Below, in pieces: positions 11,460 through 63,024 of a stretch of 64,000 nt of DNA. Source of the stretch: Escherichia coli O157:H7 (GTDB taxonomy: Bacteria > Pseudomonadota > Gammaproteobacteria > Enterobacterales > Enterobacteriaceae); NCBI RefSeq assembly GCF_013167455.1, contig NZ_CP038328.1; one strand, written 5' to 3'. The notes beneath the pieces were generated by a model. That model saw only the letters and a program-made list of their open reading frames with translations. It was not told the DNA's origin and ran no database searches. Made by a program: the position numbers and the translations under genes. How positions within the stretch are numbered: the first letter of the stretch is position 1; each line of letters starts with the position of its first letter.

Positions 11460-11722
11460 ATATTGCCGGATAAATTAAACGCCTCTGTCAGTAATGATGG
11501 GGGCGTTTTTATTTTGCGAGCAGCATTCCTGATTTTAAACGTGAACGCCGCTGGAAGAATTATCAGGTATAGAATGGCGTCGGGTGCTTGAGGCTGTCTG
11601 GCGTTAAGCATTCGCGAGGTTCCAGATGGACAAAAGCCCCAGGCGATATTTCTATCAACCTGAGGCTCGCGTTCGAACGTAGCAATTCGGATGTTAGTCT
11701 CTTCTTTGCAGGGAGGCAAGAC

Positions 11723-11875
11723 ATGCTAACAAAATATGCCCTTGTGGCAATCATAGTACTGTGTTGTACAGTACTGGGATTCACGCTCATGGTAGGCGAC
11801 TCGTTATGTGAGTTGAGTATCAGAGAGCGTGGTATGGAGTTTAAGGCAGTTCTCGCTTACGAATCGAAGAAGTAG
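11723..11875 (+). CDS. Hok/Gef-family type I toxin (small membrane peptide), hokX-like position
   Basis: 50-aa [53 protein letters not shown]; Hok-like TM segment plus SLCE...AYE motif; GC stem-loop follows. Confidence 0.7.
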
Positions 11876-12066: not shown

Positions 12067-14766
12067 ATGCGTAAATATCCTTTAAGTTTACTGAAGGATA
12101 AAAATATTGTGACTTTCTTTGATTTCTGGGGAAAAACCCGACGTGGCGAGAAAGAGGGTGGCGACGGCTATCACCTTCTTTGCTGGCATTCGCTGGATGT
12201 GGCCGCAATGGGCTATTTAATGGTTAAAAGAAATTGCTTCGGGCTGGCTGATTACTTTCGTCAATTAGGGATTTCTGACAAGGAACAGGCGGCTCAATTT
12301 TTCGCTTGGTTGCTGTGCTGGCACGATATTGGAAAATTTGCCCGCTCTTTTCAGCAACTTTACCTGGCCCCTGAACTCAAGATTCCGGAAGGTTCCAGAA
12401 AGAATTACGAAAAGATCTCTCATTCAACGCTGGGTTACTGGCTGTGGAATTATTATTTAAGTGAATGTGAGGAGTTGCTTCCTTCATCTTCACTCTCTTC
12501 TCGTAAACTTACACGTGTAATAGAGATGTGGATGTCCATAACTACCGGGCATCATGGTCGACCACCTGACCGTATTGATGAGCTGGATAATTTTCTGCCT
12601 GAAGACAAAGCTGCCGCGCGAGATTTTCTCCTTGAAATCAAGGCACTGTTTCCGCTCATAGAGATTCCCACATTCTGGGATGATGACGAGGGCGTTGAAC
12701 TTTTAAAACAACTTTCCTGGTATATCTCTGCAACAGTCGTACTCGCAGACTGGACGGGTTCGTCAACGCGATTTTTTCCACGCGTCGCACACCCAATGGA
12801 TATTAAAGATTACTGGCAGAAAACTTTAGTTCAGGCTCAAAACGCCTTAACCGTCTTTCCTCCAAAAGCAGAAACCGCACCTTTCACCGGAATTAATACG
12901 CTGTTTCCTTTTATTGAGCACCCGACACCATTACAGCAAAAGGTACTGGATCTGGATATCAGCCAGCCAGGGCCACAGTTATTTATTCTGGAAGACGTGA
13001 CTGGCGCAGGTAAAACAGAAGCGGCGCTTATCCTGGCGCACAGGTTGATGGCTGCGAGGAAAGCACAGGGTTTGTTTTTTGGCCTGCCAACAATGGCAAC
13101 GGCCAATGCCATGTACGATCGGCTGGTCAAAACCTGGCTTGCTTTCTATTCGCCAGAGTCCCGCCCCAGCTTGGTGCTGGCACACAGTGCCCGCACATTA
13201 ATGGACCGCTTCAATGAATCACTCTGGTCCGGTGATTTAGTCGGGTCAGAAGAACCGGATGAACAAACATTCAGTCAGGGATGTGCGGCCTGGTTTGCCA
13301 ACAGTAACAAGAAGGCGCTACTGGCTGAAATTGGCGTCGGCACGCTGGATCAGGCGATGATGGCAGTGATGCCGTTTAAACATAATAATCTGCGGCTTCT
13401 GGGGTTGAGTAACAAAATCCTGCTGGCTGATGAGATCCATGCCTGTGATGCTTACATGTCGTGCATTCTTGAAGGGCTGATCGAGCGGCAGGCGCGTGGC
13501 GGAAACAGCGTCATTTTGCTTTCTGCTACGTTATCCCAACAGCAGCGCGACAAACTCGTCGCCGCCTTTGCGCGTGGCACAGAGGGCCAGCAAGAAGCTC
13601 CGTTCCTTGAAAAGGATGATTACCCCTGGCTGACGCATGTCACGAAATCCGATGTGAACTCACACCGGGTAGCGACGCGCAAAGACGTTGAGCGTAGCGT
13701 CAGCGTGGGTTGGCTTCATAGTGAACAAGAGAGTATTGCGCGTATCGAATCGGCGGTAAGTCAGGGAAAATGCATCGCCTGGATCCGGAATTCTGTCGAT
13801 GACGCTATTAAGGTTCATCGTCAGCTGCTTGCCCGCGGCGTCATTCCCGCTTCCAGCCTTTCACTCTTTCATAGCCGCTTTGCTTTTAGCGATCGCCAGC
13901 GAATTGAAATGGAGACGCTGGCACGCTTTGGTAAAGAAGACGGTTCACAGCGTGCCGGAAAAGTCCTCATTTGTACTCAGGTCTTAGAGCAGAGCGTTGA
14001 TTGTGACCTGGACGAAATGATCTCCGACCTGGCCCCTGTTGATTTGCTGATTCAGCGAGCGGGGCGATTACAGCGGCATATCCGCGATATTAATGGTCAG
14101 TTAAAGCGTGACGGAAAAGACGAGCGTTCCCCTCCTGAATTGCTGATTCTGGCCCCCGTCTGGGACGACGCTCCTGGTGACGAATGGTTCGGCAGTGCCA
14201 TGCGTAACAGTGCATATGTCTATCCCGATCATGGACGAATCTGGCTGACGCAGCGTGTACTGCGTGAGCAAGGCGCTATTCAAATGCCACACGCAGCCCG
14301 CCTTCTTATTGAATCAGTCTACGGTGAGGACGTGGTAATGCCGGAAGGATTTGCCCGCAGCGAGCAGGAGCAAGTGGGCAAATATTACTGCGATCGCGCA
14401 ATGGCTAAAAAGTTTGTCCTGAACTTCAAGCCTGGCTATGCCGCCAATATCAACGATTACCTTCCGGAAAAGCTGTCGACACGTCTGGCTGAGGAATCTG
14501 TTTCCCTGTGGCTGGCTACCTGTATTGCCGGTGTGGTGAAGCCTTATGCCACCGGTGCTCACGCATGGGAAATGAGCGTTGTCAGAGTGCGTCGAAGCTG
14601 GTGGAAAAAACATCGGGATGAGTTTTCTTTACTGGAAGGGGAAGCGTTCAGGCAGTGGTGCATTGAACAGCGGCAAGATCCGGAAATGGCAAACGTGATT
14701 TTAGTCACTGATGACGAAAGTTGCGGGTATTCGGCCAGGGAGGGATTGATTGGCAAGGTTGATTGA
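12067..14766 (+). CDS. cas3: Cas3 HD nuclease/helicase (type I-E)
   Basis: 899-aa ORF; HD motif (LLCWHDIGKF), Walker A (GAGKTEAA), DEIH; alternative GTG start at 12109 possible. Confidence 0.9.
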   Translation: MRKYPLSLLKDKNIVTFFDFWGKTRRGEKEGGDGYHLLCWHSLDVAAMGYLMVKRNCFGLADYFRQLGISDKEQAAQFFAWLLCWHDIGKFARSFQQLYLAPELKIPEGSRKNYEKISHSTLGYWLWNYYLSECEELLPSSSLSSRKLTRVIEMWMSITTGHHGRPPDRIDELDNFLPEDKAAARDFLLEIKALFPLIEIPTFWDDDEGVELLKQLSWYISATVVLADWTGSSTRFFPRVAHPMDIKDYWQKTLVQAQNALTVFPPKAETAPFTGINTLFPFIEHPTPLQQKVLDLDISQPGPQLFILEDVTGAGKTEAALILAHRLMAARKAQGLFFGLPTMATANAMYDRLVKTWLAFYSPESRPSLVLAHSARTLMDRFNESLWSGDLVGSEEPDEQTFSQGCAAWFANSNKKALLAEIGVGTLDQAMMAVMPFKHNNLRLLGLSNKILLADEIHACDAYMSCILEGLIERQARGGNSVILLSATLSQQQRDKLVAAFARGTEGQQEAPFLEKDDYPWLTHVTKSDVNSHRVATRKDVERSVSVGWLHSEQESIARIESAVSQGKCIAWIRNSVDDAIKVHRQLLARGVIPASSLSLFHSRFAFSDRQRIEMETLARFGKEDGSQRAGKVLICTQVLEQSVDCDLDEMISDLAPVDLLIQRAGRLQRHIRDINGQLKRDGKDERSPPELLILAPVWDDAPGDEWFGSAMRNSAYVYPDHGRIWLTQRVLREQGAIQMPHAARLLIESVYGEDVVMPEGFARSEQEQVGKYYCDRAMAKKFVLNFKPGYAANINDYLPEKLSTRLAEESVSLWLATCIAGVVKPYATGAHAWEMSVVRVRRSWWKKHRDEFSLLEGEAFRQWCIEQRQDPEMANVILVTDDESCGYSAREGLIGKVD

Positions 14767-14863
14767 GATACCTGCGACAGGACTCTCTGAATAGTTGATA
14801 CACCGAAAAGGATGGAATGATGGACAACCGACCAGGGATGGTCTTTTTTACGAGAGGATACAT

Positions 14864-16426
14864 ATGAACTCGTTTTCACTTCTGACAACCCCGTGGTTGC
14901 CCGTTCGTTTTAAAGACGGAACAACAGGCAAGCTGGCGCCAGTCGATCTGGCGGATGAAAATGTTGTCGATATCGCTGCGCCGCGGGCAGATCTCCAGGG
15001 GGCGGCATGGCAGTTTTTGCTGGGGTTACTACAAAGCAGTTTCGCGCCAAAAGATTATCGTCGTTGGGATGATATCTGGGAAGACGGGCTGGAAGCTGAA
15101 AAGCTACGGGAAGCATTGCTGTCATTAGAACACCCTTTCCAGTTTGGCCCAGATTCACCTTCATTTATGCAGGATTTCGAGGTGCTCATGGGCGATAAAG
15201 TTCAGGTCGCTTCGCTACTGCCTGAGATTCCCGGCGCTCAAACAACGAAGTTTAATAAAGACCACTTTATTAAGCGTGGCGTGACTGAACACGTATGCTC
15301 TCATTGTTCTGCGTTAGCTCTGTTCTCCCTACAGTTAAATGCGCCGTCAGGTGGCAAAGGCTATCGCACCGGTTTACGCGGCGGTGGGCCGATGACGACT
15401 CTGATTGAATTGCAGGAGTATCAGGGTAATCAACAAGCCCCCTTGTGGCGCAAACTGTGGCTCAACGTGATGCCGCAGGATGAAGCCGACTTACCGCTAC
15501 CCAAAAAATTTGACGATCTGGTTTTCCCCTGGCTTGGCCCGACGCGTACCAGCGAACTGGCCGGTGCGGTGGTAACCGATGATCAGGTCAATAAACTCCA
15601 GGCGTACTGGGGAATGCCGCGGCGTATTCGTATTGATTTTAATACCACGACAGTCGGCAACTGCGATATTTGCGGTGAGCAGAGTGACGCGCTTCTGAGT
15701 TTGATGACTACCAAAAATTACGGTGCGAATTATGCCATGTGGCAGCATCCCTTAACGCCTTACCGTGTACCACTTAAAGAGGGCGGTGAGTTTTACTCCG
15801 TTAAACCACAACCGGGCGGTTTAATCTGGCGCGACTGGTTAGGCCTTATCGAAACGGGTAAGTCAGAAAACAATACGGAACTTCCCGCGCTGGTGGTGAA
15901 ACTCTTTAATGCCAGCAGTCTGAAACAGGCAAAAGTGGGCCTGTGGGGATTTGGTTATGATTTCGACAACATGAAAGCGCGCTGTTGGTACGAACACCAT
16001 TTCCCGCTGCTGCTCAATAAAAAAGAAGGCCAGATACCGAAGCTGCGGCTGGCTGCGCAAACGGCTTCACGGATTCTGAGTCTGTTACGGAGTGCATTGA
16101 AAGAAGCATGGTTCTCCGATCCAAAAGGTGCAAGGGGTGATTTCAGTTTTGTGGATATCGACTTCTGGAACAAAACTCAGCATCGCTTCCTGAGGTTAGT
16201 GCGCCAAATTGAAGAAGGTCAGGATGCGGATGAATTACTCGGCAAATGGCAAAAGGAAATTTGGTTATTCGCACGTCAGGATTTTGACGAGCGTGTATTC
16301 ACCAATCCTTATGAGCCCGTTGATTTGGAACGCGTCATGACCGCGCGCAAGAAATATTTTACAACATCGGCGGAGAAGCAAAGTGCTAAAGCCGCCAGGG
16401 AGAAAAAGCAGGAGGCTGCTGAATGA
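14864..16426 (+). CDS. casA: Cascade large subunit Cse1/CasA
   Basis: ORF 14795..16426; ATG 14864 after GAGAGGA; first gene after cas3. Confidence 0.85.
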   Translation: MNSFSLLTTPWLPVRFKDGTTGKLAPVDLADENVVDIAAPRADLQGAAWQFLLGLLQSSFAPKDYRRWDDIWEDGLEAEKLREALLSLEHPFQFGPDSPSFMQDFEVLMGDKVQVASLLPEIPGAQTTKFNKDHFIKRGVTEHVCSHCSALALFSLQLNAPSGGKGYRTGLRGGGPMTTLIELQEYQGNQQAPLWRKLWLNVMPQDEADLPLPKKFDDLVFPWLGPTRTSELAGAVVTDDQVNKLQAYWGMPRRIRIDFNTTTVGNCDICGEQSDALLSLMTTKNYGANYAMWQHPLTPYRVPLKEGGEFYSVKPQPGGLIWRDWLGLIETGKSENNTELPALVVKLFNASSLKQAKVGLWGFGYDFDNMKARCWYEHHFPLLLNKKEGQIPKLRLAAQTASRILSLLRSALKEAWFSDPKGARGDFSFVDIDFWNKTQHRFLRLVRQIEEGQDADELLGKWQKEIWLFARQDFDERVFTNPYEPVDLERVMTARKKYFTTSAEKQSAKAAREKKQEAAE

Positions 16427-16959
16427 GTATTGTAAAAGAGGAGCACAAAGCCACGCTGCGCAAATGGCATGAGGAATTGCAGGAGAAACGCGGCGAACGT
16501 GCCAGTCTGCGGCGTAGTACGACGGTTAATGATGTTTGTCTGACGGATGGATTTCGCCTGTTTCTGAAGAACAGACAAATAAAGTGGCAGGATGAACCTG
16601 AATGGCGTATTACCGCACTGGCGCTGATAGCCGCACTTAGCGCTAATGTTAAAGCCATTGATGAACGGCTGCCTTTTGCTGCGCAGCTGGCGGCGGTAAT
16701 GTCAAAGGGGCGTTTTACTCGCCTGTCGGCAGTAAAAACACCGGATGAATTACTGCGCCAGTTACGCCGCGTAGTCAGATTATTAAACGGTTCCGTTAAT
16801 CTTGACTCTCTGGCAGAGGGTGTCTTCCGCTGGTGCCAGGAGAGCGACGATCTGCTCAATCATCACCGCCGTCATCAGCGGCCAACCGAATTTATCCGTA
16901 TCCGCTGGGCGCTGGAATATTACCAGGCTGGCGACGTCGATAACGAACAAAATCAATAA
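16423..16959 (+). CDS. casB: Cascade small subunit Cse2/CasB
   Basis: 178-aa ORF; ATGA overlap with casA. Confidence 0.8.
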   Translation: MSIVKEEHKATLRKWHEELQEKRGERASLRRSTTVNDVCLTDGFRLFLKNRQIKWQDEPEWRITALALIAALSANVKAIDERLPFAAQLAAVMSKGRFTRLSAVKTPDELLRQLRRVVRLLNGSVNLDSLAEGVFRWCQESDDLLNHHRRHQRPTEFIRIRWALEYYQAGDVDNEQNQ

Positions 16960-39055: not shown

Positions 39056-41134
39056 TTAAATCAATGCCGATTTATCAATTCCCAGTCGCTTCATCCGTGA
39101 CAGCAGGGTCGTGCGTTTCAGCCCCAGACGTTGCGCAGCGCCTTTAGGCCCGGCAACCACGCCGTTAGTTTCTTTCAGCACGCGAACAATCAACTGATAT
39201 TCATCTTCGCCCTCCTGAGCGACAACCGTTGCGGCAGGCGGCGTTTCAGGCTCCGGTAAAGCAATATCTGGCAATGACAGCTGCAGCACGTTGCCGCGTG
39301 TTAGCAATACCGCGCGCTCAATGACGTTTTCCAGTTCGCGTACGTTACCCGGCCACTCCATATTGCTCAAGGTGCGCAACGTCTCGGCAGGAATGCTGTC
39401 GATATTGCGCCCCAGACGACGGGCAATTTTGAAGGTAAAGGCTTTCGCCAGCAGCGGAATATCTTCCGGACGCTCGCGTAGTGGCGGCAGGTGAATCGGG
39501 AATACGTTCAGGCGGTAATAGAGATCGCTACGGAACTCACGGTCGGCGACCATTTTTTTCAGATCGCGGTTAGTCGCGGCGATTAGACGCACGTCCGTCT
39601 GAATGATTTTGTTGCTGCCGAGGCGTTCAAACTCCTGTTCCTGCAATACACGCAGCAACTTCGGCTGTAACTCCAGTGGCATATCGCCCACTTCGTCGAG
39701 GAACAGGGAGCTTTTATCCGCCAGTTCAAAACGACCGATACGCTGGGCGCTGGCACCGGTAAAAGCCCCACGCTCATGACCAAACAGATCGCTCTCCAGC
39801 AATCCGGCAGGCATCGCCGCGCAGTTCATTTTGACCATGCGGCGATTATTACGCCCACTGAGATTATGGATAGCACGGGCAATCAGCTCTTTACCCGTGC
39901 CAGTTTCACCGAGGATCAGCACGGTACTGTCACTTTGCGCCACCATTTCAACTTGTTTAAGCACGCTGTACATGGCTTCGCTGCGGCCAATAATCTCGCC
40001 AAATTCACTATCAACATTGTTGAGCTGCTCGGTCAGGGCGAGGTTTTCATCAACCAGCCGTTCTTTCAGACGATGGATTTCCTGATAGGCGAGGGCGTTA
40101 TCGACAGCGATTGCCACACGTTCGGCAATCTGGCGCAGTAAATTCAGATTGGTAGTGGTAAACACTTTCTCTTCACATTGCGCCAGTTTCAGCACGCCCA
40201 GCATGGTGTCGCCAGACATCAGCGGTAACAGGCACAAGGTTTGAATCTGGTTGCCCCAGGTATCGAACAACATGCGTTCATAGGGGGCTAAATCATCCCG
40301 CTCGTGGAGATTAATCAGCAGCATCTCTTTACTTTTGAACACGCGTTCGGTGAGGGTTCCGGCTTCATCGACTTCGCTCTGTTCGTGGGCGGGATGCTGT
40401 TTATCAAGATAGTGAGTGGAGTAGATGTTGAGTTTGTTTTTACGGTGGCTGCGTAAGACGATACTGATATCGTCAATATCGAAATAGTAATGGATTTCTT
40501 TGGCGACTTCGCTGACCAGTTCGTCCATATCCAGGCGGGAAAGCACCGCGTTGGTGATGGCGACCAGGATGCGGAAGTTATCGCGTTCCCGGCATAACAA
40601 CTCATAGTCGACATTGTTAACGACGCGACTCTGGATTTGTTCGGTGACGACAGAAACGATCTGCGTAAATGTTTGCAGACGATTGAACTCTTTTTCGCTC
40701 CAGGGGCGATCGTCATAACGAATAAATTCACAGCCACCAAAAATATGCCCTTCCGCCGCCAGTGGCATCAGGCAATAGTGACCAAATTTTGGGTATAGCC
40801 CACCTGCGGCCAGCTGCGGCCAGGTTTCACAAAATTCTTCGTAACTGCAATGCAACGTATCAGGGCGCGACAAAATGCTGCGTACCGGACCGTGTGCCAG
40901 AACAGTTTCGTCTTCATATTTAATGGGGGTGTCTTTTTCACGCGATGCGTAATAAGACGCACGTTGAGTCTGCGCTTGCCACAACACAATAGCCGCGTTG
41001 TCGGCGAGCGCAGAACGCTTTACCAGTTGCGAAAGAGCCTCACACAGCGAGGCCAGATCGGGCTGCTGCAATAGTGTCCGAGTGATGTCGAACAACCCTT
41101 GCTGTCCGAGATCACTCATCGGTGTATATGACAT
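39056..41134 (-). CDS. fhlA: formate hydrogenlyase transcriptional activator (sigma54 EBP)
   Basis: ORF 39056..41170; start at MSYTPMSD giving 692 aa; GAF and AAA+ (GETGTGKE) domains. Confidence 0.9.
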   Translation of the reverse strand: MSYTPMSDLGQQGLFDITRTLLQQPDLASLCEALSQLVKRSALADNAAIVLWQAQTQRASYYASREKDTPIKYEDETVLAHGPVRSILSRPDTLHCSYEEFCETWPQLAAGGLYPKFGHYCLMPLAAEGHIFGGCEFIRYDDRPWSEKEFNRLQTFTQIVSVVTEQIQSRVVNNVDYELLCRERDNFRILVAITNAVLSRLDMDELVSEVAKEIHYYFDIDDISIVLRSHRKNKLNIYSTHYLDKQHPAHEQSEVDEAGTLTERVFKSKEMLLINLHERDDLAPYERMLFDTWGNQIQTLCLLPLMSGDTMLGVLKLAQCEEKVFTTTNLNLLRQIAERVAIAVDNALAYQEIHRLKERLVDENLALTEQLNNVDSEFGEIIGRSEAMYSVLKQVEMVAQSDSTVLILGETGTGKELIARAIHNLSGRNNRRMVKMNCAAMPAGLLESDLFGHERGAFTGASAQRIGRFELADKSSLFLDEVGDMPLELQPKLLRVLQEQEFERLGSNKIIQTDVRLIAATNRDLKKMVADREFRSDLYYRLNVFPIHLPPLRERPEDIPLLAKAFTFKIARRLGRNIDSIPAETLRTLSNMEWPGNVRELENVIERAVLLTRGNVLQLSLPDIALPEPETPPAATVVAQEGEDEYQLIVRVLKETNGVVAGPKGAAQRLGLKRTTLLSRMKRLGIDKSALI

Positions 41135-43608: not shown

Positions 43609-44471
43609 CGCTGTGTCTCCAGCCAGTTCAGCCACTGGTCCATCCCTTCGCCGCTGGTGGCGGAAATAAGGATGATTTCAATTTCTGGATTGACTTCGCG
43701 GGCGCAGGCGATGCACTTCTCAACGTCAAAGTTGAGATACGGCAACAGGTCAACTTTGTTGAGCAGCATCAGCGAGGCGGCGGCAAACATATGCGGATAT
43801 TTCAGCGGTTTGTCTTCACCTTCGGTAACGGAAAGCACCGCCACTTTGTGTTTTTCACCGAGATCGAAGCTGGCCGGGCATACGAGGTTGCCAACGTTTT
43901 CGATAAACAGAATACCGTTATCGTCCAGTGGCAGACGCGGTGCGGCGTCGGCAATCATCTGTGCGTCAAGATGGCAGCCTTTACCGGTGTTCACCTGAAT
44001 CGCTGGTGTGCCGGTAGCGCGAATGCGTGCGGCATCGTTCACGGTTTGCTGGTCACCTTCAATAACCGCGCACGGAACGCTGTCTTTCAGGCGCATTAAG
44101 GTTTCCGTCAGCAGGGTGGTTTTACCGGAACCTGGGCTGGAAACCAGGTTGAGCACCAGTTGCTTGCAGGCAGCAAAGCGCGCGCGGTTGCGTTCAGCCA
44201 GACGGTTATTTTTGTCCAGCACGTCAATTTCGACTTCCAGCATCCGACGCTGGCTCATGCCCGGTGCGTGAGTGCCCGCTTCGCCATGACCGTAATGCAG
44301 GTCGCCTTCTTCAGTCTGGCTGGGGGTAAATTCAGGCGCTTTAATGCCGGTGATTTTCATCTTCGGGCGTGCCGCCGGGGCAAATGGCGCGCTACGAAAC
44401 GCGGAATGAGGGTTATGTTCATCACCCTCGATATACAGGTTGCCTTCACCGCAACCGCATGTTGTACACAT
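43599..44471 (-). CDS. hypB: hydrogenase nickel incorporation GTPase HypB
   Basis: 290-aa ORF; N-terminal Cys/His metal-binding region; GTPase motifs. Confidence 0.9.
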
Positions 44472-44474
44472 CGC

Positions 44475-44825
44475 TCACTCCTGGTCTATTTCTATCCGCC
44501 GAATCTGTAAACCGTCGTCTGCCACAATCTGTAGCATGTCACCATGACACTGTGGACAGCGGCGGACGCGCTGGGTCAGTAGCGTCACATACTGTTGGCA
44601 TGTTTCACACCAGCATTCGGCCTCTTGTTCTTCGAGGTGCAGTTTACAACCTTCCGCCACGCTGCCGCGGCAAACCAGATCAAAACAAAAGGCAAGAGAG
44701 CTGGTTTCGACACAAGAAAATGCGCCAATTTTGAGCCAGACCCCAGTTACGCGTTTTGCGCCGTGTTTTGCGGCCTGCTGTTCGATCAATTCCAGTGCCC
44801 GTTGGCAGAGGGTTATTTCGTGCAT
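44475..44825 (-). CDS. hypA: hydrogenase nickel incorporation protein HypA
   Basis: ORF 44475..44837; start at MHEITLCQ giving 116 aa; CxxC...CxxC. Confidence 0.85.
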   Translation of the reverse strand: MHEITLCQRALELIEQQAAKHGAKRVTGVWLKIGAFSCVETSSLAFCFDLVCRGSVAEGCKLHLEEQEAECWCETCQQYVTLLTQRVRRCPQCHGDMLQIVADDGLQIRRIEIDQE

Positions 44826-44855
44826 ATCGCCTCCCATTAACTATTGCCAGCTACA

Positions 44856-44871
44856 AGCAATAATTGTGCCA
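44856..44871 (-). promoter_or_regulatory. sigma54 -24/-12 promoter for hyp operon
   Basis: minus strand TGGCACaattatTGCT (GG and GC correctly spaced), about 30 bp upstream of hypA ATG. Confidence 0.6.
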
Positions 44872-44984
44872 GTGTTGATTATCCCTGCAGTGAATAATGT
44901 CGATGATGTCGAAATGACACGTCGACACGGCGACGAAATTCACCAAAATCTTAAAAATCGCTTTAATAATAATAAATTAAAAGT

Positions 44985-45000
44985 TGGCACAAAAAATGCT
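44985..45000 (+). promoter_or_regulatory. sigma54 -24/-12 promoter for hyc operon
   Basis: TGGCACaaaaaaTGCT upstream of hycA ATG 45037. Confidence 0.65.
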
Positions 45001-45036
45001 TAAAGCTGGCATCTCTGTTAAACGGGTAACCTGACA

Positions 45037-45498
45037 ATGACTATTTGGGAAATAAGCGAGAAAGCCGATTACATCGCACAGCGGCATCGTCGCCTACAGG
45101 ACCAGTGGCACATCTACTGCAATTCGCTGGTTCAGGGGATCACGTTATCGAAAGCGCGCCTGCATCACGCCATGAGCTGCGCGCCGGACAAAGAACTCTG
45201 TTTCGTCCTTTTTGAACATTTTCGTATTTACGTCACCCTGGCGGATGGCTTTAACAGCCACACCATCGAGTATTACGTCGAAACAAAAGATGGCGAAGAC
45301 AAACAGCGGATTGCGCAGGCGCAACTGAGCATTGACGGCATGATTGATGGCAAGGTCAACATCCGCGATCGCGAACAGGTTCTGGAACACTATCTCGAAA
45401 AAATCGCTGGCGTTTACGACAGCTTATACACCGCTATTGAAAACAATGTGCCGGTGAATTTAAGCCAACTGGTAAAGGGACAAAGCCCGGCAGCATGA
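45037..45498 (+). CDS. hycA: formate hydrogenlyase regulatory protein HycA
   Basis: 153-aa ORF. Confidence 0.85.
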   Translation: MTIWEISEKADYIAQRHRRLQDQWHIYCNSLVQGITLSKARLHHAMSCAPDKELCFVLFEHFRIYVTLADGFNSHTIEYYVETKDGEDKQRIAQAQLSIDGMIDGKVNIRDREQVLEHYLEKIAGVYDSLYTAIENNVPVNLSQLVKGQSPAA

Positions 45499-45622
45499 GC
45501 TGAGGCTTTGCCCGTTTTGCAGGCGTTACGCCTGTTTGGGGATGGGCGTGTCGATGAGTGTCGAAAATGACATTTCATCGGCATGTTTTCGTCAAAAATG
45601 ACAATCACCTGAGGAATGCCTG

Positions 45623-46234
45623 GTGAATCGTTTTGTAATTGCTGACTCCACGCTCTGTATCGGTTGCCACACTTGTGAGGCCGCCTGTTCAGAGACGCAT
45701 CGCCAGCACGGCCTGCAATCAATGCCGCGCCTGAGAGTGATGCTAAATGAAAAAGAATCTGCGCCGCAGCTCTGTCACCACTGTGAAGATGCACCCTGCG
45801 CGGTGGTCTGCCCGGTTAACGCCATCACCCGCGTTGATGGGGCCGTGCAGTTGAATGAAAGCCTGTGCGTAAGCTGCAAGCTGTGCGGCATCGCCTGCCC
45901 GTTTGGCGCAATTGAATTTTCCGGCAGCCGTCCGCTGGATATTCCTGCAAATGCCAATACCCCGAAAGCGCCACCGGCACCGCCTGCTCCGGCGCGTATC
46001 AGTACGCTGCTTGACTGGGTGCCGGGTATTCGCGCGATCGCCGTCAAATGTGACCTTTGTAGCTTTGATGAACAAGGTCCGGCCTGCGTGCGGATGTGCC
46101 CGACTAAAGCCCTGCATCTGGTGGATAACACCGATATCGCCCGCGTCAGCAAACGTAAGCGTGAGCTGACCTTTAACACGGACTTTGGCGATCTCACCTT
46201 GTTTCAGCAGGCTCAAAGTGGAGAGGCTAAATGA
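45623..46234 (+). CDS. hycB: formate hydrogenlyase Fe-S subunit HycB
   Basis: 203-aa ORF; 4Fe-4S cysteine clusters. Confidence 0.9.
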   Translation: MNRFVIADSTLCIGCHTCEAACSETHRQHGLQSMPRLRVMLNEKESAPQLCHHCEDAPCAVVCPVNAITRVDGAVQLNESLCVSCKLCGIACPFGAIEFSGSRPLDIPANANTPKAPPAPPAPARISTLLDWVPGIRAIAVKCDLCSFDEQGPACVRMCPTKALHLVDNTDIARVSKRKRELTFNTDFGDLTLFQQAQSGEAK

Positions 46235-48057
46235 GCGCAATTTCCCTGATCAATAGCGGCGTGGCGTGGTTTGTCGCCGCCGCTGTTCTGGCATTTCTCT
46301 TTTCTTTTCAAAAGGCGCTAAGCGGCTGGATAGCCGGAATTGGCGGCGCGGTTGGTAGTCTGTATACGGCAGCCGCGGGCTTCACTGTACTGACTGGCGC
46401 GGTTGGCGTGAGCGGTGCGCTGTCGCTGGTAAGCTACGATGTGCAAATCTCTCCGCTTAACGCGATTTGGCTGATTACGCTCGGTCTGTGCGGTCTGTTT
46501 GTCAGCCTCTACAACATTGACTGGCATCGCCACGCGCAGGTGAAGTGCAACGGCTTGCAGATCAATATGTTGATGGCTGCCGCCGTCTGCGCCGTCATTG
46601 CCAGCAACCTCGGCATGTTCGTGGTAATGGCCGAAGTCATGGCCTTGTGTGCGGTGTTCCTCACCAGCAACAGCAAAGAGGGCAAACTGTGGTTTGCGCT
46701 GGGGCGTCTTGGCACTCTGCTGCTGGCGATTGCTTGCTGGCTGCTGTGGCAGCGTTACGGCACGCTGGATCTGCGCCTGCTGGATATGCGTATGCAACAG
46801 CTGCCGCTCGGTTCCGATATCTGGCTGCTCAGTGTGATTGGCTTTGGCCTGCTGGCCGGGATTATTCCGCTGCACGGCTGGGTGCCGCAGGCACATGCGA
46901 ACGCCTCTGCGCCAGCTGCCGCGTTGTTTTCTACGGTAGTCATGAAAATTGGCCTGCTGGGCATTTTAACCCTGTCACTGCTGGGCGGTAATGCACCGCT
47001 GTGGTGGGGGATCGCGCTGCTGGTGCTCGGTATGATCACCGCGTTTGTCGGCGGTCTGTATGCGTTGATGGAACATAATATCCAGCGTCTACTGGCTTAC
47101 CACACCCTGGAAAATATCGGCATTATCCTGCTGGGGCTGGGCGCTGGCGTAACGGGTATCGCGCTCGAACAACCGGCGCTGATTGCTCTTGGCCTGGTCG
47201 GTGGTCTGTACCATCTGCTTAACCATAGCCTGTTCAAAAGCGTACTGTTCCTCGGGGCGGGGAGCGTCTGGTTCCGTACCGGTCATCGCGATATCGAAAA
47301 ACTCGGTGGTATTGGCAAGAAAATGCCGGTTATCTCCATCGCTATGTTAGTCGGGCTGATGGCAATGGCTGCACTGCCGCCGCTGAACGGTTTTGCCGGG
47401 GAATGGGTTATCTATCAATCCTTCTTCAAACTGAGCAATAGTGGCGCGTTTGTTGCCCGTCTGCTGGGGCCGCTGCTCGCTGTGGGTCTGGCAATTACCG
47501 GTGCGCTGGCGGTGATGTGTATGGCGAAAGTCTATGGCGTCACGTTCCTCGGCGCGCCGCGTACCAAAGAAGCCGAAAACGCCACCTGTGCACCGCTCCT
47601 GATGAGCGTAAGCGTAGTGGCACTGGCGATTTGCTGCGTAATTGGCGGTGTTGCTGCGCCGTGGCTGCTGCCGATGCTCTCTGCTGCTGTACCTCTGCCG
47701 CTGGAACCTGCTAACACCACCGTTTCTCAACCGATGATCACGTTGCTGCTGATTGCCTGCCCGCTGCTGCCATTCATCATTATGGCGATTTGCAAAGGCG
47801 ATCGTTTGCCATCGCGTTCCCGCGGCGCGGCCTGGGTGTGCGGCTACGACCATGAAAAATCAATGGTAATTACCGCCCACGGTTTTGCCATGCCGGTGAA
47901 ACAGGCGTTTGCGCCGGTGCTGAAACTGCGCAAATGGCTGAATCCGGTGTCGCTGGTGCCGGGCTGGCAGTGCGAAGGCAGTGCGTTGCTGTTCCGCCGG
48001 ATGGCGCTGGTTGAACTGGCGGTGCTGGTGGTGATTATTGTTTCACGAGGAGCCTGA
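46231..48057 (+). CDS. hycC: formate hydrogenlyase membrane subunit HycC
   Basis: 608-aa hydrophobic ORF. Confidence 0.9.
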   Translation: MSAISLINSGVAWFVAAAVLAFLFSFQKALSGWIAGIGGAVGSLYTAAAGFTVLTGAVGVSGALSLVSYDVQISPLNAIWLITLGLCGLFVSLYNIDWHRHAQVKCNGLQINMLMAAAVCAVIASNLGMFVVMAEVMALCAVFLTSNSKEGKLWFALGRLGTLLLAIACWLLWQRYGTLDLRLLDMRMQQLPLGSDIWLLSVIGFGLLAGIIPLHGWVPQAHANASAPAAALFSTVVMKIGLLGILTLSLLGGNAPLWWGIALLVLGMITAFVGGLYALMEHNIQRLLAYHTLENIGIILLGLGAGVTGIALEQPALIALGLVGGLYHLLNHSLFKSVLFLGAGSVWFRTGHRDIEKLGGIGKKMPVISIAMLVGLMAMAALPPLNGFAGEWVIYQSFFKLSNSGAFVARLLGPLLAVGLAITGALAVMCMAKVYGVTFLGAPRTKEAENATCAPLLMSVSVVALAICCVIGGVAAPWLLPMLSAAVPLPLEPANTTVSQPMITLLLIACPLLPFIIMAICKGDRLPSRSRGAAWVCGYDHEKSMVITAHGFAMPVKQAFAPVLKLRKWLNPVSLVPGWQCEGSALLFRRMALVELAVLVVIIVSRGA

Positions 48058-57231: not shown

Positions 57232-57331
57232 CCTGCATTACAGAAATTAATTTCCTTAAATAACAGCAAATTAAAAACTGGCATGATTTGTGAATGTATC
57301 GGCGCATTAACTGTCATTGCTGGAGAATTTG

Positions 57332-63008: not shown

Positions 63009-63024
63009 TGCAGATTGCGTGCCA
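63009..63024 (-). promoter_or_regulatory. sigma54 -24/-12 promoter of norVW
   Basis: minus strand TGGCACgcaatcTGCA about 50 bp upstream of norV start. Confidence 0.7.

Follow-up and report, generated by a model that had tools for sequence, protein, structure and literature searches.

The hyp/hyc switch of the formate regulon has been understood since about 1990 and has been used in hydrogen-production engineering. Its start sites were reportedly mapped originally by S1 or primer extension analysis. In Escherichia coli K-12, two sigma-54 ChIP-seq peaks coincide with it (Bonocora et al. 2015, PMC4591121): in the excerpts of the published tables, OS27 (TTGGCACAAAAAATGCT, FAT 91) has hycA as its downstream gene and OS28 (CTGGCACAATTATTGCT, FAT 201) has hypA, and both carry the flag 'C' for EcoCyc, which denotes experimentally confirmed promoters. 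The value of 201 for hypA is among the strongest within these excerpts. Genomic SELEX with the RpoN holoenzyme also recovered the hycA/hypA spacer (Shimada et al. 2021, PMC8743547), and passages of PMC4591121 and PMC11841067 state that induction of the regulon depends on formate and FhlA. In Salmonella LT2, the orthologous motifs TGGCATGGAAAATGCT (hycA) and TGGCATAAATATTGCT (hypA) gave sigma-54 ChIP-chip signals, and, with a constitutive enhancer-binding protein, the wild type exceeded the delta-rpoN strain 26-fold for hyc and 5.6-fold for hyp (PMC3844500).

How does the locus described here compare with these systems? The stretch of DNA that we analysed, referred to as the window, is 64 kb of an E. 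coli chromosome. Measured against hycAp and hypAp of E. coli K-12, the divergent NtrA (sigma-54)-dependent promoters (Lutz, Bohm, Beier & Bock 1990, Mol Microbiol 4:13), it does not differ in the 17-nt promoter sequences, the flanking genes, the orientation or the leader lengths; it is the same locus, and the strain background is the only difference. With hycA (STM2853) and hypA (STM2854) of Salmonella Typhimurium LT2 (Samuels et al. 2013, PMC3844500), it has in common the divergent architecture, the GG and GC blocks and their spacing, whereas the Salmonella promoters have T in place of C as the last base of the six-base −24 block (TGGCAT) and differ in their spacer bases. The other promoters of the FhlA formate regulon, those of fdhF, hydN-hypF and hyf, are built on the same sigma-54 −24/−12 core and the same TGTC-N5/6-GACA-type FhlA enhancer. 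However, they are single and unidirectional, whereas hyp and hyc have two promoters that face apart, with one enhancer in the space that separates them and another, apparently paralogous one beyond hycA.

Results

The locus and its genes

A 1.3-kb query around the motifs matched many complete E. coli genomes at 100% identity, with O157-type strains giving the best full-length matches, and the hyp/hyc region was found in 5425 of 5426 complete genomes at an identity of at least 95%. The RefSeq features beneath the matched region are hypB, hypA and hycA. In the annotation, fhlA-hypE-hypD-hypC-hypB-hypA lie on one strand and hycA through hycI on the other; ascBFG, hydN-hypF, norWV and norR are annotated beyond the hyc operon. 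The genes on which the argument turns are the following:

44475–44825, minus strand: hypA, first gene of the hyp operon (RefSeq annotation; Pfam HypA, E = 7.6e-31)
45037–45498, plus strand: hycA, first gene of the hyc operon, FhlA antagonist (RefSeq; Pfam HycA_repressor, E = 1.3e-90)
39056–41134, minus strand: fhlA, which closes the hyp operon and encodes the formate-sensing enhancer-binding protein (RefSeq; Pfam)

The ATG of hypA stands at 44825 on the minus strand and that of hycA at 45037 on the plus strand, and the divergent gap of 211 bp between the two genes houses both sigma-54 motifs. The FhlA protein carries the Pfam domains GAF, Sigma54_activat (E = 1.1e-72) and AAA lid; its HTH_8 match (E = 2.8e-4, 21.0 bits) falls slightly under the 22-bit cut-off. 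Further along the hyc operon, hycB starts at 45623 and matches a ferredoxin-type HycB in Pfam.

Two side observations concern the annotation. In the RefSeq record NZ_CP022050.2, the formate hydrogenlyase activator (14757–16835 of our extracted locus L001, equivalent to 39056–41134 of the window) is labelled 'flhA', with the product 'FlhA'; the label transposes the letters of fhlA and clashes with the name of a flagellar export gene. A known structured RNA at the promoters was considered and rejected, the only Rfam match being a sok RNA 33 kb away:

11582–11738, plus strand: full-length sok antitoxin RNA (Rfam RF01794, 105 bits)

This match implies a chromosomal toxin–antitoxin locus of the hok/sok type about 33 kb from the hyp/hyc promoters.

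Two outward-facing sigma-54 elements

The original prediction had placed one TGGCAC-N6-TGCT element on each strand of this region, with the GG and GC dinucleotides at the canonical −24/−12 spacing. Direct reading and a pattern search agree with it to the base: the hyp core TGGCACAATTATTGCT occupies 44856–44871 on the minus strand, the hyc core TGGCACAAAAAATGCT occupies 44985–45000 on the plus strand, and in both elements GG and GC are 10 nt apart, the canonical geometry. Extended to 17 nt, the two promoters are as follows:

44856–44872, minus strand: PhypA, sigma-54 (−24/−12) promoter of the hypABCDE-fhlA operon, CTGGCACAATTATTGCT (sequence, matrix, ChIP-seq identity, conservation)
44984–45000, plus strand: PhycA, sigma-54 (−24/−12) promoter of the hycABCDEFGHI operon, TTGGCACAAAAAATGCT (sequence, matrix, ChIP-seq identity, conservation)

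Both 17-mers are identical to the OS28 and OS27 motifs of K-12 given in the ChIP-seq table excerpts. The elements point outward, each toward its own gene, with 30 nt from the end of the motif to the ATG of hypA and 36 nt to that of hycA. The pattern TGGCACNNNNNNTGCT (TGGCAC-N6-TGCT) matches the 64-kb window only twice, at these two elements; shuffled windows contained 0.21 matches on average, and 2 of 100 shuffles reached two. Compared with a TGGCAC-N5-TTGCW-like core, TGGCACAATTATTGCT has no mismatch and TGGCACAAAAAATGCT has one.

We scanned both strands of the window with an RpoN weight matrix derived from 186 promoters (PMC7658346; maximum possible score 21.03). The hyp element ranked first (minus strand, 19.08), followed by a site at 63009–63024 (minus strand, 16.32), the hyc element (plus strand, 15.36) and a site at 45106–45121 (plus strand, 15.06); below the fourth rank, the scores dropped to 12.0.

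PhypA and PhycA also form a 27-nt inverted repeat, 44845–44871 against 44985–45011, that is 81% complementary (…TGCTTnnAGCTGGCA) and extends from the −24 block as far as the predicted start sites. The similarity exceeds what the sigma-54 core requires, which suggests that the pair originated by inverted duplication.

Predicted transcription starts

At a sigma-54 promoter, transcription is expected to depend on rpoN and to begin about 12 nt beyond the GC doublet. By the rule set out in the excerpted part of PMC4591121, the start site is predicted 19 nt downstream of the motif centre, and the leaders given there are 20 nt for hypA and 26 nt for hycA. Applied to the window, the rule yields the following predictions:

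44845, minus strand: predicted hyp transcription start, 20-nt leader (PMC4591121 rule)
45011, plus strand: predicted hyc transcription start, 26-nt leader (PMC4591121 rule)

The published leader lengths match the geometry of the two ATGs in the window (44825 and 45037) exactly, and the predicted 20-nt hyp leader carries a GGGAGG Shine–Dalgarno sequence.

Conservation across Enterobacteriaceae

A HycA-based scan with one genome per species returned 80 Enterobacteriaceae loci, which together with the window gave 81 sequences; the genera sampled include Escherichia, Citrobacter, Salmonella, Enterobacter, Klebsiella, Kluyvera, Raoultella, Lelliottia and Kosakonia. In all 80 loci, hypA is divergent from hycA, across a spacer of 188–223 bp. 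The top match to the RpoN matrix on each spacer strand was the orthologue of the element described above in every one of the 81 sequences, with the following scores and distances:

hyp promoter, 81 sequences: minimum score 15.5, median 17.0, motif end to ATG 28–34 nt (one at 42)
hyc promoter, 81 sequences: minimum score 14.1, median 15.3, motif end to ATG 34–37 nt

The TGGCA and TGC columns of the alignment are invariant on both the hyp and the hyc side, and the five or six spacer bases drift (for example AATTA, GTTTA, CGTTA, TGTTA and TCTTA). Mean column identity is 0.93–1.00 in the blocks, 0.69–0.81 in the spacers and 0.50 in the stretch from the hyp −24 block to the enhancer. The sampled Salmonella locus (L010) has the hyp motif TGGCATAAATATTGCT, the same as that published in PMC3844500. 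Over the 81 sequences, the pattern of invariant blocks and drifting spacers is the clean footprint that a pair of sigma-54 promoters would leave.

FhlA-type enhancers and the AT-rich tract

Two regions resemble binding sites of FhlA, and an AT-rich tract lies beside one of them:

44898–44943: UAS-1, FhlA-type enhancer between the promoters, with repeated TGTCG / CGACA half-sites (FhlA matrix, repeats, conservation)
45549–45603: UAS-2, second FhlA-type enhancer, hycA-hycB intergenic (FhlA matrix, conservation, alignment with UAS-1)
44945–44983: AT-rich tract between UAS-1 and PhycA (sequence)

The FhlA matrix derives from 13 characterised sites (PMC7658346; consensus TGTC-RAWRA-TGWCA, maximum 17.7); it probably includes the E. 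coli hyp/hyc sites, so that the E. coli scores are partly circular, which does not apply to the cross-species scan. With this reservation on the E. coli values, the best site in the window is TGTCGAAAATGACA of UAS-2, at 45559–45572 (17.5 of 17.7), and the second is the best 14-mer of UAS-1, TGTCGATGATGTCG, at 44898–44911 (16.1 of 17.7). A further FhlA site of UAS-2, CGTCAAAAATGACA, is found at 45590–45603. UAS-1 contains direct and inverted repeats, and its TGTCG and GACA..GTCG columns are conserved. Across the species, the hypA-hycA spacer has an FhlA site scoring at least 9 in 65 of the 81 sequences, mostly at the same offset, and the hycA-hycB gap has one in 80 of the 81.

Relative to the predicted hyc start, UAS-1 would lie at −113 to −68, a typical enhancer distance; it is also upstream of the hyp −24 block, with just 26 bp in between. 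UAS-2 follows the predicted hyc start at a distance of about 0.55 kb. In a local pairwise alignment, 44898–44943 and 45549–45602 align over their whole length with few indels of 1–3 nt and a score of 44, compared with 18 ± 4 for shuffles, none of 2000 of which reached 44; a MAFFT alignment of the two regions was uninformative. Judged by this similarity, UAS-1 and UAS-2 look like paralogous enhancer modules. UAS-1 is said to serve hyc, and the hycA-hycB site is said to serve hyp from a distance of about 0.7 kb. Full-text literature searches on which enhancer serves which promoter returned nothing usable.

The AT-rich tract is probably a DNA-bending region that accommodates IHF, and IHF has reportedly been found to bind it beside PhycA. 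The IHF consensus WATCARNNNNTTR has no match within one mismatch in the hypA-hycA intergenic region of E. coli; in 32 of the 81 species, a perfect match occurs at the equivalent place (for example AATCAATAAATTA).

Other sigma-54-like sites in the window

Three further sites in the window correspond to published sigma-54 peaks in the excerpts of PMC4591121:

63009–63024, minus strand: norV sigma-54 promoter TGGCACGCAATCTGCA, 48 nt upstream of norV, score 16.32 (matches OS25)
57279–57294, plus strand: hydN-hypF sigma-54 promoter TGGCATGATTTGTGAA, 38 nt upstream of hydN (matches OS26)
47442–47457, plus strand: intragenic hycC site TGGCGCGTTTGTTGCC, in sense orientation (matches ChIP-seq IS31, GTGGCGCGTTTGTTGCC)

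The norR gene is divergent from the norV promoter element. The hydN element has a weak −12 region (GTGAA) and an RpoN score of only 11.06.

The site that ranked fourth in the RpoN scan lies inside hycA:

45105–45121, plus strand: third sigma-54-like motif, GTGGCACATCTACTGCA, with its core TGGCACATCTACTGCA at 45106–45121

Could this motif, which scores 15.06 against 15.36 for PhycA and follows it by 121 nt in the same orientation, be another promoter? It falls on the codons Trp-His-Ile-Tyr-Cys (W-H-I-Y-C), and across the 81 sequences its score ranges from 4.6 to 19.1; about 18 of them lack the −12 GC, having the synonymous TGT as their Cys codon. Because the codons are conserved and the GC is lost wherever Cys is TGT, the motif appears to reflect protein coding and not selection for a promoter, and we rejected a conserved promoter on the cross-species scores. 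The excerpts of the main tables of PMC4591121, and its supplement text under a term search, list no separate ChIP-seq peak inside hycA, although the study could tell apart the peaks of hyc and hyp, which are separated by just 139 bp. The evidence leans against a promoter at this position, and a real one restricted to Escherichia and Klebsiella, starting near 45132, seems distinctly unlikely. If it were real, it would give hycB-I transcripts without the anti-activator HycA, and the ratio of hydrogenase-3 structural genes to repressor would become adjustable.

Weighing other readings of the promoters

Could the promoter upstream of hypA be bound by sigma-54 and still contribute little? An FNR-dependent promoter inside hypA reportedly drives hypBCDE-fhlA. 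If this sigma-70 promoter dominated the expression of hypBCDE-fhlA, PhypA would be reduced to a minor, formate-specific booster. In line with such an arrangement, PMC7658346 states, as a secondary source, that FNR activates hypABCDE-fhlA anaerobically, and in Salmonella the hyp response was weaker than that of hyc (5.6-fold vs 26-fold; PMC3844500). However, an FNR promoter inside hypA would act alongside the sigma-54 promoter, not in its place, and PhypA has the top matrix score in the window and a FAT of 201 in the table excerpts of PMC4591121. A search for the FNR consensus in hypA found nothing convincing; the best match within 44400–45100 has 2–3 mismatches and lies outside the expected place. 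Dominance of an FNR-dependent promoter over PhypA is very improbable in our judgement.

That the motifs are chance occurrences in an AT-rich intergenic region, with hyp and hyc transcribed from ordinary sigma-70 promoters, is barely conceivable. A score at the level of the hyc element is, by itself, not rare: 0.4 (zero-order) to 0.9 (first-order Markov) such scores are expected by chance in 64 kb, counting both strands. Within the 211-bp intergenic region and on the correct strand, however, the chance is about 3–6e-4 for a score of hyc grade and about 1e-5 for one of hyp grade, and the joint positional probability of the two elements is about 1e-8; their placement is far from chance. The elements are, moreover, invariant in 80 other species whose spacers drift, and it is these very sequences that the published data on sigma-54 ChIP-seq, SELEX and rpoN dependence concern. 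As for sigma-70, the region holds two weak hexamer pairs of that type, each on the plus strand, but this is the level expected by chance (2 found vs 1.7 expected) and neither faces hypA; sigma-70 promoters for hyp and hyc were rejected on this ground. The loss of formate induction in delta-rpoN has also already been reported in the cited literature.

Discussion

The region between hypA and hycA almost certainly contains the divergent pair of sigma-54 promoters that belongs to the formate regulon of E. coli, with PhypA reading into hypABCDE-fhlA on the minus strand and PhycA into hycABCDEFGHI on the plus strand. In this assignment, the motifs with their position, orientation and conservation, the fhlA gene and the FhlA sites are observed in the DNA, and the occupancy by sigma-54 and the dependence on rpoN and FhlA come from the literature. 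The original prediction of divergent sigma-54 promoters for the hyp and hyc operons is borne out by the annotation, Pfam, ChIP-seq, SELEX, the Salmonella rpoN data and conservation; the FhlA/sigma-54 dependence of formate hydrogenlyase, to which it appealed, finds support in the literature and in the fhlA gene and FhlA-type sites of the window.

How would these elements work together? Sigma-54 RNA polymerase would bind each TGGCA-N7-TGC element and form a closed complex that is unable to open the DNA alone. As formate builds up in the cytoplasm during fermentation, FhlA would bind the TGTCG-type sites of UAS-1 and UAS-2, and formate-bound FhlA would oligomerise on these enhancers. It could then reach the polymerase by DNA looping, for which hyc would have the help of the AT-rich tract as bent by IHF, and its ATP hydrolysis would open the promoter, giving transcripts from near 44845 on the minus strand and 45011 on the plus strand. 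Within this scheme, we infer the pairing of each enhancer with its promoter, the role of IHF and the exact starts. Because fhlA belongs to the hyp operon and its antagonist hycA to the hyc operon, the circuit would include both a positive and a negative autoregulatory feedback loop.

PhypA and PhycA are already known: they are the classical hypAp and hycAp of E. coli. The finding therefore adds nothing to the field, and its value is that of a positive control, in which a reader of raw sequence located established promoters to the base and identified the right regulon. For the biology of the enterobacteria, the promoter pair is the switch through which formate controls the production of hydrogen in fermentation and the maturation of hydrogenases.
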